Assembly: GCA_964016885.1 (NCBI GenBank)
Contig: OZ024742.1
Coordinates: 119,164,001-119,228,000 of the forward strand
Source of the DNA: Eledone cirrhosa
Taxonomy: Eukaryota
Direction of reading: 5' to 3'
Length of the DNA: 64,000 nucleotides
A program made the position numbers and the translations under genes. Below, piece by piece: positions 201 through 8,918 of this stretch; position 1 is the stretch's first letter; every line of letters begins with the position of its first letter. The notes under the pieces are model-generated. The model did not search any database. It was given only the letters and a program-made list of their open reading frames with translations, and was not told where the DNA came from.

Positions 201-280
201 GGCTAGTACTATACTGAACTACCTCCCCGTGGTGCCAGCTGGGTGGTCTAAGATTACTCCTAGACCAGCGAAAAGTTCGG
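201..280 (+). ncRNA. HDV-like self-cleaving ribozyme at the RTE 5' end
   Basis: P1 GGCTAGT(201-207)/GCCAGCT(234-240) with one mismatch; P2 CTGAACT(214-220)/AGTTCGG(274-280); P3 ACC/GGT with L3 TCCCCGT; P1.1 CC/GG(241-242); P4 TGGTCTA/TAGACCA; J4/2 GCGAAA with putative catalytic C269. Confidence 0.8.
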
Positions 281-1165
281 CGGCAGTGCCTAAGGACGTG
301 GTGGGTTTATGCCTGGCAAGCGTTCTCCCTATAAAAAGCCACAGATGTCCGCAACAGCACTGTGACGTGGCGAGCATGACCCGCCACTAAATAGGGTCAC
401 TGCCCCCATCCTGTCTCACCCGAGGCATTGTATTCCAGAAGAGGCGGAAGAACCATTTGGTCAACGGCTCGAATGGAACTTCGTGAGCATTGGGACCCCG
501 GTTTGGTTAACGACCAAGCAAAGGCGTATGAACTGGTCTACTGGTCATCGTCTCCCAAATGGGTGCGACTCCCTGATCTCGCTCCGCTGCCTTGTGGACA
601 GACTTTTTAGTCAAAGGCTCCGGGTGGAGTCCCCAAAGTAAACCCCCTACTTCAGCCTAGGCAACCGGGTAGTATTACGCCTTCTGGAGAGGGAAACTCC
701 GACATCAAACCTACGGCCCGAGGACCTCGCTGTCACCGTCCCAGCTCGCTAGGCCATGGCAGATGAACCTCGTGCTTAAAAGGTGGGGCCAGTTTGCGCG
801 CACTGCACTTCACCTTAAAACTCCTCAGCGCAGGCCGAAGGACACGTCCACGTTCTATGACCAACCATTCCCAAAGCCCTGCAGTGATGGGAAAGGGGCG
901 AAAGCGGCAGGTGGGAGATGTCACTGGAAGCCGTTGTCTCGATCCTACATGTAGGCGGCTCAGGACTTTGGTCGCTTGGTTGTCGATCCGGTAGCGACGA
1001 CACCACTCGCCAGCATCCTGAGCGACCAGGCAGCTCTATTTAGGGTGAGCACTGCCTGCTCCACATGGAGAGAGGCGGTAGAAAAGGTTCGCCTAAACAA
1101 AGCTGTCTCCTCTATACCCAGTTGGCTATCCGCGGTCAACGTGCATCTTCAGCGGTCGAACAAAT

Positions 1166-2149
1166 ATGGAAACAAAACTAAAGAAAAGTAAGCAGGACTT
1201 GTGGAATGTCAGGACTATCCTTGACAAGGCTGAGAGCAGCCGCCCGGAACGTCGTTCGGCTCTCATATCCCATGAACTCTCCCGCCTCAACATCGACATA
1301 GCAGCTCTCAGCGAGGTCCGCTTCGCTGACGAGGGCAGCCTCAAAGAACGCGGCGCTGGCTACACCCTTTTCTGGTCCGGGAAACCATCATCTGGAAGAC
1401 GCCTGTCGGGTGTAGGACTCATGGTGAGGAATTCCATCGCCTCCAATCTGGAAACGTTACCCACGAGCCACTCGTACCGCATCATATCCATGCGCCTACC
1501 ACTGGAGAGCAAACAACATCTCACGCTCTTCAGTGTCTATGTTCCAACGCTACTGGCAGATCCTGCGGACAAAGACAGTTTCTATTCTGATCTGCGCAGA
1601 CTCTTGAACAACACCCCTGCAGACGACAAGGTCCTGATCCTTGACGACTTCAACGCAATAGTTGTGAGGGACTCTGAGGCCTGGAAAGGAGTTCTTGGAA
1701 GACACGGCGTTCGTGGCTGTAACGACAACGGGCGCCTCCTGCTCGAGTTCTGCACAGAGCACCAACTTGCCATTACCAACACAATCTTCCAACAGAAAGA
1801 CCGCCTGAAAACAACTTGGATGCCTCCTCGGTCCAAACATTGGAATCTACTTGACTATGTGCTTGTGCGCCAACGGGACCTGAAAGATGTTCTACACACG
1901 AGAGTGATGCCCAGTGCAGAGTGCCACACTGACCATCGCCTCGTCCGCTGCAAGCTCAAACTGCAGTTCAAACCCAAACCCAAGAAGAAAGGTAACCCCG
2001 TAAAGAAACTCAACATCGGCAGCCTGTGCCGAGAGGAAGTGAAAGTCAAGTTCCAAGTAGACTTGCAGCAAAAACTAGACGAATCCCCTTGCACTGATGA
2101 CCCCCAACCCAGACACCTTGTGGGAGAACCTGAAATCAGCCATCCTTAA
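1166..2149 (+). pseudogene. RTE ORF, APE-type endonuclease domain
   Basis: Motifs WNVRT, DIAALSEVR, DDFNA (GDFNA), LDYVLVR, TDHRLV; frameshift near 2100. Confidence 0.93.
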
Positions 2150-2425
2150 GACATCTGAGGAAGTTCTTGGGCACACAAAAAGGACGGGTTTGATGAAAAT
2201 GACAAGGAGATCCAGGACTTACTATCAAAGAAGAGGGCAGCTCATCAGGCCCACCTTGCACAACCAACCTGTCCTGTAAAGAAAGATACCTTTCGACGCG
2301 CATGCAGCACCCTACAGCGCAAACTCAGAGAAATACAGAACGAGTGGTGGGACCACCTGGCGTGGAGAACCCAGCTCTCCGCTGACCTCGGAGACTATAG
2401 AGGCTTCTATGAGGCTCTGAAAGCA

Positions 2426-4400
2426 GTGTATGGCCCCACCCACCAGGTCCAGAGTCCCCTGCGCAGTTCAGATGGAGAGGACCTCCTCACCGATAACACC
2501 TCCATCCTCGCTCGCTGGTCCGAGCACTTCCAAAGCCTCTTCAGTGCTGACCGCACCGTACAGGACGCTGCCATCCATCGCGTTCATCAACTTCCACTCA
2601 AAGAGGAGCTCGACGAACCACCTACCCTCGAAGAGACGACTGAAGCCATAGAACAACTCAAGAGTCGCAAAGCAGCAGGAGTTGACAGCATCGCACCAGA
2701 AATCTGGAAGAATGGAGGTCCGACGCTCCACGACAAGCTACACGATTTTCTTGTCTGCTGTTGGGAGCAGGGTAAGCTGCCACAGGATCTTCGCGACGCC
2801 GTCATCATAACCCTGTACAAGAACAAGGGTGAAAAGTCTGACTGCTCCAACTACCGGGGAATCACCCTACACTCCATCGCTGGGAAAGTACTTGCCTGGA
2901 TCCTACTCAACAGGCTCGTACCAACCATCGCTGAAGAAAACCTCCCCAAGAGCCAGTGTGGCTTCAGAGCCAACAGAGGCACGACGGACATGGTGTTCGT
3001 CTTCCGCCAACTCCAGGAGAAGTGCCGAGAACAAAACAAGGGACTCTATGCTGCTTTTGTCGACCTCACAAAAGCTTTTGACACAGTGAGCAGGACAGGA
3101 CTATGGCTCATCCTGGAACGACTTGGCTGTCCCACCAAGTTTCTACAGATGGTGATCCAGCTGCACGAGAACCAGCGCGGCCAGATCAGACTCAACGGTG
3201 ACCTGTCGGAGCCCTTCCCCAACTCCAACGGCGTGAAGCAGGGTTGTGTCCTGGCACCGACTCTCTTCAGCATCTTCTTCAGCATGATGCTCAAGCATGC
3301 AACTGAGGATCTGGATGATGGGGATGGGGTGTATGTCAGGTACCGTATGGATGGCAGCCTCTTCAATCTACGGCGCCTCCAGGCCCATACCAAGACCCAG
3401 GAGAGGTTGATCCGAGACCTTCTCTTCGCAGATGACGCTGCCCTCGTCGCCCACACAGAGCGAGCTCTGCAGCGCATCACGTCCTGCTTTGCGGACCCTC
3501 ACGGCTCTTTGGTCTGGAGGTTAGCCTCAAGAAGACGAAGGTTCTTCACCAGCCTGCCCCCCAAGAAGAATACCGCTATATCACTATCTGCGATACCGAG
3601 CTGAAATAAACACAGCAGTTGACATACCTGGGCTGCATCATCTCATCAGATGCAAGGATCGACAAAGAAATTGACAACAGACTCTCTAAGGCAAATAGCT
3701 CCTTTGGCAGATTGTACAAACGTGTTTGGAACAACAAAAACCCGAAGAACAAGACAAGGATCAGCGTCTACAGGGCCGTGGTTCTCACCACTCTCCACTA
3801 CGGCTCGGAGACCTGGGTCACCTACCGCAGTCACATCCGTCTCCTCAAGCGCTTCCACCAGCGATGTCTCCGCACCATCCTCAACATTCGCTGGAGTGAC
3901 TTCGTCACAAACGTTGAAGTTCTGGAGCAGGCCGAGATCCCCAGCATTGAAGCCATGCTGCTGAAGTACCACCTCCGATGGGCAGGGCATGTCTCCAGAA
4001 TGGAGAACCATCGCCTTCCTAAGATTGCCCTGTTTGGCGAACTCTCCACCGGCCACCTAGAGAGAAGAGCCCCGAAGAAACGCTACAAAGACTGCCTCAA
4101 AAAGTCTCTCACCGCATGTCATGTTGACCACCATGTTGGTCAGACCTGGTTGCGGACCGTGATGGCTGGCGCCACAGGATCTTCAACGCGGTCAGCGAGT
4201 TTGAGGAAGACAGAAGAGACGCGCAAAAAGACAAGAGACGCAGAAGGAAGGCCCGAGTCGCCTCTGACACCACACCGGACGTTACCTTCATCTGTGGACA
4301 CTGCTCACGGACCTACCTTTCCCGCATTGGACTTGTCAGTCATGAGCATGCCTGCAGACGACGTGGACAACCTTCCTAATCTTCGTTCGCGAAGCCAAGC
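2426..4400 (+). pseudogene. RTE ORF, reverse transcriptase and C-terminal region (broken)
   Basis: [52 protein letters not shown]; frameshifts near 3495 and 4130, stop near 3607. Confidence 0.95.
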
Positions 4401-4689
4401 TATGATGATAACTATACTGAATATAGATGTTGGCACCAAATTGCGGTATAAGTATTGTTTCCATGATTAACCACTTATTGTTGTTCGGTATTCTATATAA
4501 TTGTTTCTACTTTTGGCACAAGGATGGCCATTGCACGATATACCATTATTAATAATTCTCAATTAATTCTATCGTGCAATGCCTGTGCATGAAGATATTT
4601 TTTAAAGTGAGGAAAGACTGTGCACTGAGCCAATCCCACTCTCTGGGCGAAAGAAAAAAAGATCAACACTATCGGTAACTAGTGAGCCG

Positions 4690-5075
4690 CAGGTTTTATA
4701 TCGGAGTTATCCCAGTTTCTTGAGTCGCCTTCTCCTAGAAGAATGCCCTGACAAAGGCTAGGGTCCTTCACTCCCAGTGGTTTAACCGCGCGACCGCGTG
4801 TCCAGCCCGACTATTTCTATGTCCCCGCACATATACACACACATGCACCCATGTATATACACATATACATACATATGTACGTGTGTATATACATATTTAC
4901 ACACTTTTGGATGGCCGTTGACTCTTATGAGTTCTTCCGACCTTTGTCAGGTTTTGTTATTTTTCTTGCAGGGTGTCCAAAATCACCCTCCTCACTAAGT
5001 AAACTTGGTGGGGTTGCCGGTTTAGTCGCCGACGACCCAACCATGCGACAGGTTGAACTGAGTGACTCGACATAC
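4690..5075 (+). mobile_element. Non-autonomous retroposon with (CATA)n tail, same family as 8314-8580 (-)
   Basis: Shared blocks CCTTCTCCTAGAA..TGACAAAGGCTA and TTTTGGATGGCC..CTTGGTGGGGTTGCC..GACAGGTTG, followed by CATA repeats. Confidence 0.7.
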
Positions 5076-5341
5076 ATACACATATATACATACATATATA
5101 CATATATACATACATACATGTATACATACATACATATATACATATATGTATGAACTTGGATTTGCGGACAAAGAGCGCAGATCCCTAATTCATGGTCTAC
5201 AAATGGTTGCGATAGCTGGAACCTTCAAAATTTGCAAAACATTCTTGCGATTCAAGGGATGACAATTTCTTTTCTTTTACAACCTTGCCACCAGGAAGGT
5301 GGCCGGTCAAAAATACACTCGAAATTAAGAGAAAGAGATAA

Positions 5342-5396
<55 letters not shown>

Positions 5397-5740
5397 CATA
5401 TATTTAAATATATAATCGTTGCAAGATTTCTTTCCTGAAAGAAAAATAACTAGTTATGTAAGAGTCACCTTAGACTATATTTATATAGGACAAAACGATG
5501 ATGAAATATCACATTATGTTTTTCTATTGTTTACAACAATGAACAGTATTCATGGCAATTACAGATATACAATACTTAGGTTACTTTTTTTCTGACTTCC
5601 CAGGATTTTACTGTGAGTCTCAGTCTATTTCGTGTTTTTGATTAGCTCAAGCTAAAGTTGAAATGCTATAGAAATTTGAAAAAGTACACTTATCAATACA
5701 ATATTATCAAAAGTAAAACAATATATGTATATGTGTGTGT

Positions 5741-5904
5741 TACGGCCCTTTAGGTTCTGAGTTCAAATCCCGCGGAGGTTAGGTTAGCTTTACTTTTCAT
5801 CCTTACGGGGTCGATAAAATAAAGTACCAGTAATGCACTAGGGTCGATTTAATCGACTTTCCCCTTCCCGAAAATTGTTGGCTTTGAGCCTAAAGTAGCA
5901 ATCA

Positions 5905-5905
<1 letters not shown>
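5741..5905 (+). mobile_element. tRNA-derived SINE, family A (5' truncated)
   Basis: B-box GTTCAAATCCC and conserved core TTTCATCCTTACGGGGTCGATAAAATAAAGTACCAG. Confidence 0.85.
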
Positions 5906-5937
<32 letters not shown>

Positions 5938-5984
5938 TGTATGTATGTATGTATGTATGTATGTATGTATGTATGTATGTGTGT

Positions 5985-7914: not shown

Positions 7915-8918
7915 TGTGACAATTATTGACACAGTGCTGAGCCCATGGTACCATGTGACGACAAGTGCAGAGAGATCTCCAGATATAAAGCAATGCCTGT
8001 GCCGTGAAGCTTTTATAGTGAGCAAAGGCACTGCACAGAGCCAGTCCCACTCTCTTAACCAAGATGATATTTACCAAAAAGAAGAACAAGTCAACATCAT
8101 TGGACACAATCAGGGTTGCAGGTGTTATATCAGAGCTTTCCTTCTCCTAGAATTGTGCCTTGACAAAGTGTAGTGTTTGTATCAGAGTTTTCAAGTCGCT
8201 GGCTGGACTAAAAAGTCACACTCGTTCAGCGCATCGGTAGGGGTTCTCCTACATGGATATAAAGTAGTGGCCGTACTCGAAAACGAGTTGGCAGCCACTA
8301 TGTATGTATGTATGTCAGGTCACCAGTTGGTGCTACTGGTAACATGTATCCCAGTACAACCTGTCTCATGGTCGGGTCGTTGGCGACTAAACTGGCAACC
8401 CCACCAAGGTTTCTTGGTGAGGAGGGTGACTTTGGACATCCTGCAGGACTAAAAACAAAACCTGTCAAAGGGCAAAGGAGCTCTTAAGAGTCAATGGCCA
8501 TCCAAAATCACCGGGAGAGATAACTCCTTAGCCTTTGTCAAGGCAGAATTCTAGGAGAAGGAAAACTCTGATATAACACCTGCAACCCTGATGGTATCCA
8601 ATGATGTTGACTTGTTCTTCTTTTTGGTAAATATCATCTTGGTTAAGAGAGTGGGACTGGCTTTGTGCAGTGCCTTTGATCACTATAAAAGCTTCACGGC
8701 ACAGGCATTGCTTTATATCTGGAGATCTCCGCACTTGTCGTCACATGGTACCATGGGCCCAGCACTATGTGTCAATAATTGTCACAAGTGTAGTGTTTGT
8801 ACCAGAGTTTTCAAGTAGCTGGCTGGACTAAAAAGTCACACTCGTTCAGCGCATCGGTAAGGGTTCTCCTACATGGATATAAAGTAGTGGCCGTACTCGA
8901 AAACAAGTTGGCAGCCAC
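7915..8918. repeat. Compound inverted plus direct duplication between (TATG)n tracts
   Basis: 7915-8168 is the reverse complement of 8533-8786; 8166-8298 is a direct copy of 8786-8918. Confidence 0.92.

Follow-up and report, generated by a model that had tools for sequence, protein, structure and literature searches.

This locus raises the question of whether an HDV-like ribozyme predicted at the 5′ end of an RTE-type retrotransposon copy is encoded by the element itself or is partly assembled from the host DNA into which the copy was inserted and, if host letters take part, whether they came to lie there by guided joining or by accident. In the window, as we call the whole 64,000-nucleotide stretch of DNA that was analysed, the fold occupies positions 201–281, and its letters and coordinates agree with those of an earlier note on this DNA. 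Its parts are the following.

201–207/234–240, forward strand: P1, four Watson–Crick and two G–U pairs with an A205–C236 mismatch
208–213, forward strand: J1/2 of the chimera, supplied by the target-site duplication (TSD)
214–220/274–280, forward strand: P2 of the window copy, six Watson–Crick pairs and one G–U pair
221–223/231–233, forward strand: P3, three Watson–Crick pairs
224–230, forward strand: L3, UCC..CG-type
225–226/241–242, forward strand: P1.1, two Watson–Crick pairs
244–253/258–267 (region 244–267), forward strand: P4, nine Watson–Crick pairs and one A–C mismatch
268–273, forward strand: J4/2, containing C269

Together these parts provide a P2 of at least 5 bp, a 3-bp P3, an L3 of the UCC..CG type, a P1.1 of 1–2 bp and a P4. 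The pattern that the earlier note had described as a complete double pseudoknot is present at that place, but 'complete' overstates P1, which contains the A205–C236 mismatch; the imperfect helices P1 and P2 are the two built with letters of the flank. C269 is aligned, as a matter of alignment only, to the J4/2 cytosine of the Rfam HDV model, and we take it to be the equivalent of the catalytic C75; G201–U240 is a canonical first pair. The 13-mer that spans P3 and L3 occurs a single time in the window.

Three Rfam families match here, all within 199–281 and all below their gathering scores, in searches that scored the window copy: drz-agam-1 (RF01787) with 31.4 bits against 37 (E 1.2e-4, or 0.0024 when searched in 6 kb), HDV with 27 against 50 and HDV-F-prausnitzii with 13.5 against 44. 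The drz-agam-1 alignment of the fold begins exactly at 201. Minimum free energy folding of 201–300 was not distinctive (z −0.36), as is to be expected because the fold is a pseudoknot.

The element that follows is organized as listed here.

216–4410, forward strand: RTE-type non-LTR retrotransposon copy of 4.2 kb, 12 nt short at its 5′ end, with a 5′ UTR of about 950 nt
216–281, forward strand: element-encoded part of the ribozyme, comprising a remnant of the P2 5′ strand (216–220), P3, L3, the 3′ strands of P1 (234–240) and P1.1 (241–242), P4, J4/2 and the P2 3′ strand (274–281)
1166–4379, forward strand: broken single ORF for an APE endonuclease, a reverse transcriptase and a C-terminal CxxC...H motif
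4401–4410, forward strand: short 3′ tail of the (ATG)n type

Pfam recognizes the endonuclease (APE, PF03372 and PF14529) and the reverse transcriptase (RT, PF00078) in this single ORF, which has no accompanying ORF1; intact relatives are about 1,059 amino acids long and at most 89% identical over the RT part. A tblastn search with the best intact relative (P0001) spans three frames and crosses three stop codons, so the copy is dead and cannot move by itself. It has both a 3′ microsatellite tail and a TSD, as expected of the RTE clade, and we use the RTE label provisionally, on the strength of this architecture and of the earlier note; among the relatives listed, no name says RTE. Because one relative (L002) ends in the same (ATG)n repeat at the same place, the 3′ boundary of the element can be placed with confidence, and with it the point where the TSD begins. 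No second copy of the element was found within the 64-kb window.

At the left junction, host and element letters meet as follows.

99–215, no strand assigned: left flank (host target DNA) with the P1 look-alike, matched by a contig of sequencing run X4
201–207, forward strand: stretch of flank that resembles the P1 5′ strand, not part of the TSD and in no element copy of the four runs compared
208–218, forward strand: 5′ copy of the TSD, which in the chimera gives J1/2 (208–213) and P2 positions 214–218
216–218, forward strand: GAA microhomology, the final three letters of the TSD as well as positions 13–15 of the native ribozyme
4411–4421, forward strand: 3′ copy of the TSD, the exact 11-mer

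The 11-mer at 208–218 and its exact repeat at 4411–4421 are its sole two occurrences in the 64 kb, and it is the longest repeat common to both boundary regions, the next longest being 6 nt; an exact shared 11-mer arose in 133 of 200,000 random 40 × 40-nt pairs from the same window. The earlier note placed the 5′ strand of P1 upstream of the TSD, and 201–207 does lie outside the duplicated stretch. Its derivation of J1/2 and most of the P2 5′ strand from the TSD fits the chimeric pairing, but 216–218 are also the element's own letters. The T207/A208 boundary suits the Tn-TA insertion signature of RTE elements (PMC6007223 and PMC13295347, both in excerpt), but the run of five Ts lies 21–25 nt upstream, against about 10. 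By eye, the inferred empty site also contains a small inverted repeat (209–213 with 4422–4426) around a 5-nt loop, and the second nick would fall at the 3′ end of this loop.

The 5′ ends of other copies bear directly on the origin of these strands. Positions 1–600 of the window were compared, at 80% likeness, with four sequencing runs (X1, X4, X23 and X8, of 24 listed), and homology within the family starts at 216, neither at 201 nor at 219. One contig (record 3 of X1) covers 216–380 with a single differing letter, and its unaligned end before 216 consists of a TA run followed by AGCTGGC-AT-GCC, which supplies a native P1 5′ strand (AGCTGGC), a native J1/2 of just 2 nt (AT) and a native P2 5′ strand (GCCGAACT). 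With these letters P1 has seven of seven Watson–Crick pairs and P2 eight of eight with 274–281, so the P2 noted earlier has to be extended at its end, from 280 to 281. In this contig the family head has a P1 of 6–7 bp that starts with a purine–pyrimidine pair at the cleavage site. The presence of AGCTGGC-AT-GCC in an intact relative, together with full P1 and P2 pairing, implies that the element carries its own complete ribozyme, of which the first 12 nt are gone from the window copy; the head of the family can be shown to encode all five predicted helices itself.

The full native 12 nt come from this one contig. Seven X4 contigs also have unaligned ends at 216, and their consensus, which ends in TGGAATGCC, agrees with the X1 head in eight of the last nine letters; overall agreement is 0.53, with departures at −6, −10, −11 and −12 that may reflect variable junctions or ties. 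The first native base, an A, may belong to the flank, or may be G.

Sequencing depth tells the same junction from the other side. In the bin 201–220, depth amounts to exactly 5 positions in X1 and to exactly 27 reads × 5 positions in X23, arithmetic by which 201–215 is uncovered in either run; at 201–215 depth is zero in X1, X23 and X8, and in X8 it is absent before 401. The earlier note had made its TSD reading depend on whether 201–218 is present in all copies, and since 201–215 is not part of other copies, that reading stands; the P2, P3 and P4 strands are kept in other copies, as the note had anticipated for a genuine ribozyme. An X4 allele, 251G, with 579 of 608 in depth, closes the mismatch in P4. 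Covariation is limited to this one-sided change (251 A>G), and no alignable head was found among the 37 related loci listed.

The flank itself appears in a further X4 contig (depth 18.1), which covers 99–216, stops there and does not enter the element; among the differences listed for it, six lie at 152–186 and none at 187–216. This suggests that a related organism has the P1 look-alike in its flanking DNA, on a contig that ends two letters before the end of the TSD. As a separate observation, X1 (organism A) yields element contigs about 98–99% like the window and none on the flank 46–215, whereas X4 (organism B) yields the flank 46–215 at about 95% likeness and many more diverged element contigs (216–600) rich in C>T and G>A changes. 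The contrast could stem from a gap in coverage or from recent transfer of the family. X23 reads at 290–407 come from a diverged sister subfamily, with at least seven differences per read.

As read from these comparisons, the anatomy is host flank at 201–207, TSD at 208–218 and element from 216, with 216–218 common to target and element. The likely explanation, in our judgement, is that microhomology joining clipped a normal predicted RTE ribozyme by 12 nt and that the flank resembles P1 by chance. Self-cleavage, if it operates as in RTE and R2 ribozymes, would free the element RNA from read-through transcripts and set its 5′ end. During target-primed insertion (TPRT), staggered nicks would leave an 11-nt 3′ overhang made up of 208–218, and the cDNA would extend to native position 13 or beyond. 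The overhang could then anneal to the cDNA over 8 nt, with six matches of which the last three are exact, and prime the second strand, and the first 12 nt would be trimmed as a flap or never copied. The earlier note had offered slight truncation with a chance P1 match as one of two possibilities, and it is the better-fitting one: the copy is 12 nt short, and the flank does not have the sequence of the native head. Its other proposal, homology-guided joining, is supported within the TSD only, where the match is 3 nt exact and 6/8 imperfect; energy estimates speak against a working reconstituted ribozyme.

These estimates concern whether the chimera would cleave. A full double pseudoknot can be drawn for the chimera, but it is predicted to fold weakly. 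Stacking energies fall from −16.4 kcal/mol in the native form to −8.9 in the chimera for P1 and from −16.7 to −11.1 for P2, and the helix-sum margin over the best nested alternative, pseudoknot penalty excluded, is 1.3 kcal/mol for the chimera against 10.0 for the native form. The TSD letters 208–212 are able to prolong P1 into the 3′ strand of P3 and into L3, and with upstream flank included (151–300), the look-alike letters 201–205 pair instead with 210–214, within 208–214. ViennaRNA cannot score a pseudoknot, and its probabilities for P2 and P3 are 0.03–0.06 even for the native form. On such modelling the chimera would cleave poorly or not at all. Among R2 elements, as excerpted in PMC3774820, a one-mismatch P1 accompanied absent cleavage in the horseshoe crab, and about a quarter of the ribozymes have one or two mismatches at the top of P1; in drz-Agam-2 constructs a J1/2 of 3–7 nt supported activity (PMC4908430, in excerpt). 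Given the tolerance of P1 mismatches in R2 and the G201–U240 first pair, the chimera may cleave, but measurable cleavage seems to us doubtful on these models.

How much of the resemblance chance can supply depends on what is asked. Positions 211–218 match the native head in six of eight letters with the final three exact, and a match of this kind was found, in any register within the first 20 nt, at 1,188 of 90,640 random window ends (1.3%) and, in the same register, at 136 of 90,640; among ends finishing in GAA the share was 7.0%. A P1 heptamer at least as good as the one at 201–207 lay within reach in 1,092, 3,533 and 6,873 of 90,492 non-simple random flanks when J1/2 was allowed up to 6, 20 and 40 nt (1.2, 3.9 and 7.6%); with the 2-nt extension of P2 added, these rates fell to 0.3, 1.0 and 1.9%. 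Set against the native 12 nt, flank positions 201–215 match in 7 of 12 letters, or in 8 with G as first base; the alignment contains a single 3-nt gap, and its mismatches are all transitions. A gapped alignment as good arose by chance in 26, 2.4 and 8.3% of cases under three scorings if the first base is A, and in 3.7, 0.5 and 1.2% if it is G (4,000 flanks each). All these p-values for resemblance of the flank are post hoc and concern a single copy, and only complete-looking copies get flagged. Since a joint P1 and P2 resemblance appears in just 0.3–1.9% of flanks, the chance reading needs this very selection effect.

The same low figures keep alive, as an improbable alternative, a more extensive form of guided joining in which the 3′ end of the cDNA paired with about 15 nt of target, the TSD plus 201–207, across a 3-nt bulge and with displacement of the bottom strand. 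The P1 resemblance would then be the cause of the junction, and the host sequence would rebuild a cutting ribozyme. The gapped flank-to-native alignment (7/12, or 8/12 with G, transitions only), its chance of 0.5–26% depending on the setting, the scarcity of flanks offering both P1 and the P2 extension (0.3–1.9%) and the cDNA/target heteroduplex model for R2 (PMC3774820, in excerpt) all favour it. However, the R2 model is built on perfect homology of 9–36 nt, whereas here, as DNA, just 4–5 of 7 positions past the bulge would form Watson–Crick pairs in competition with a perfect target duplex. The first nick falls at the start of the 5′ repeat (according to the excerpted text of PMC13295347), so presumably only 208–218 becomes single-stranded and 201–207, outside that overhang, stays duplex. 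The post hoc p-values from one copy and the small fold margin of 1.3 kcal/mol weigh on the same side. Microhomology at such junctions has precedents: it is the norm in 5′-truncated L1 insertions, nearly 80% of which show it (Kojima 2010, PMC2912911, in excerpt), and R2 elements whose ribozyme cuts exactly at the element's 5′ end have been proposed to take this route as well (PMC3774820, likewise). We give very little credence to the most far-reaching version, in which the 5′ joint of a non-site-specific APE retrotransposon would be set where cDNA from the ribozyme head pairs with similar host DNA lying past the TSD. The element would thereby exchange its P1, J1/2 and P2 5′ strands for host sequence that still permits cleavage at 200/201, as a route to new heads and a shifted cleavage site.

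Resemblance by ancestry can be imagined in two ways. The target might be what is left of an ancient element with a ribozyme head, oriented like the new copy that was inserted into it, and under transition-tolerant scoring the inferred empty site is indeed co-linear with about 65 nt of the native ribozyme; but 13.8% of 3,000 random stretches match that score, as do 46% and 85% under two other scorings, and the right flank lacks similarity to the UTR that should follow (36–75% of 500 random stretches are equal to it), which leaves a relic target very improbable. Alternatively, 201–218 would be the element's own head, decayed or belonging to a variant subfamily, and the 11-mer at the 3′ side a coincidence. 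Differences by transition only look like decay, and the drz-agam-1 alignment of the fold does begin exactly at 201, but this reading requires 12 nt to have taken up 4–5 substitutions together with an insertion of 3 nt, against one difference over the next 165 nt, as well as a boundary 11-mer of the kind that arises in 133 of 200,000 trials, and the X4 flank contig crosses 187–216 with no listed difference. We find it hardly credible. Microhomology joining of a clipped element remains our preferred account: this is probably an ordinary RTE-type predicted HDV-like ribozyme in a dead copy, next to a fortuitous P1 look-alike.

HDV-like ribozymes at RTE 5′ ends were reportedly described by Ruminski 2011, the study that PMC3774820 and PMC5786205 cite for them. 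That such ribozymes are already known is stated in the excerpts of both of these papers, and PMC3774820 adds that RTE ribozymes cleave at the 5′ junction of the element. The present family shares with the RTE ribozymes and drz-agam-1 the same five-helix double pseudoknot, encoded by the element at its extreme 5′ end, and the P3/L3 core of the RF01787 consensus is nearly identical to that of the window element. It differs from them in a native J1/2 of just 2 nt, and the window copy differs further in being without the native P1 5′ strand, J1/2 and 3 nt of P2, in its sub-cut-off score and in that cleavage is predicted only.

The earlier note had also drawn a parallel to R2. Target-derived P1 is known there, in elements whose P1 is supplied by 28S sequence (Eickbush et al. 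2013, PMC3774820, in excerpt), and non-element sequence likewise takes the 5′ position of P1 here, but the parallel is loose, since P1 is encoded by the family itself, in the element-encoded head seen in other copies. In R2, the excerpted text has the fixed rDNA target giving P1 in every copy of the lineages concerned and being copied into cDNA; here, by contrast, the target is not fixed, the match of the flank is imperfect and one copy is involved. The same excerpt already foresees, for R2, a chance 'de novo P1' approximated by junction sequence. Perere-3, a non-site-specific element of the RTE clade in Schistosoma mansoni, offers another comparison (PMC8501958, in excerpt): its TSD is part of a helix of a twister T-variant and may set its activity. 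That ribozyme is of the twister class, however, and by its design a TSD located 5′ to the cleavage site provides P1 in every copy; the TSD here is on the 3′ side of the predicted cleavage site, and it is by accident that it takes the place of an element strand that was lost. Closer in form are the 5′ junctions of truncated L1 copies (PMC2912911, in excerpt), where the end of the TSD likewise overlaps the first retained element bases, although here the truncation is merely 12 nt, falls inside a ribozyme and affects an element that is not L1. In the literature consulted, we found no description of flank-rebuilt HDV-like ribozymes in RTE elements; the 2011 study of RTE ribozymes and its supplement may show such junctions.

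Searches for relatives reached further than the ribozyme did. Scans for the pattern of the ribozyme core gave no match in viral contigs or in prokaryote genomes, and scans for the element protein gave no locus in viral contigs, one distant locus in prokaryote genomes and at least 37 in metagenomes. Among the 37 metagenome loci listed, the HDV-like head is absent, with blastn similarity in the UTR beginning at window position 581 or beyond; a ribozyme descriptor scan over the same loci matched the window only, and Rfam gave no match on 17 of the 37. Two loci (L001 and L008) are about 75% like the window UTR at 686–1163 without carrying an HDV-like head, a hint that related families swap 5′ modules.

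As a side observation, a motif of the form CTGCTAC-hairpin-GTAC..CC precedes the ORF, close to where the 5′ end probably lies, in four of the 37 loci listed, at the places given here.

L001, 30–61: CTGCTAC-hairpin-GTAC..CC motif
L006, 108–139: CTGCTAC-hairpin-GTAC..CC motif
L007, 20–51: CTGCTAC-hairpin-GTAC..CC motif
L008, 354–385: CTGCTAC-hairpin-GTAC..CC motif

A fifth match, in L010, lies inside the ORF. The consensus stem has five pairs, one of them with a two-sided change, and no Rfam match; the motif may represent a 5′ processing RNA that is undescribed or of a non-standard type. The right flank of the window element contains short dispersed repeats: a piece of 25–31 nt (4494–4523) is found elsewhere in the window seven times or more, and one of 70 nt (4576–4644) recurs at 7990 and 8711. 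Rfam microRNA matches at 4827–5977 (mir-297 and others, all below cut-off) were rejected as composition artefacts because they fall on TA/TG microsatellites.

The locus adds one more RTE-type family with a compact predicted HDV-like head, and it carries a warning: ribozyme predictions at the 5′ ends of LINEs that are made from single copies may borrow strands from the TSD or the flank, and must be compared with further copies. Were the bolder reading true, second-strand joining in a dispersed LINE would draw on imperfect homology that reaches further than the TSD overhang allows. 5′ ends defined by a ribozyme would provide a fixed ruler for a genome-wide test of this kind, one that bears on how the 5′ ends of LINEs become attached.
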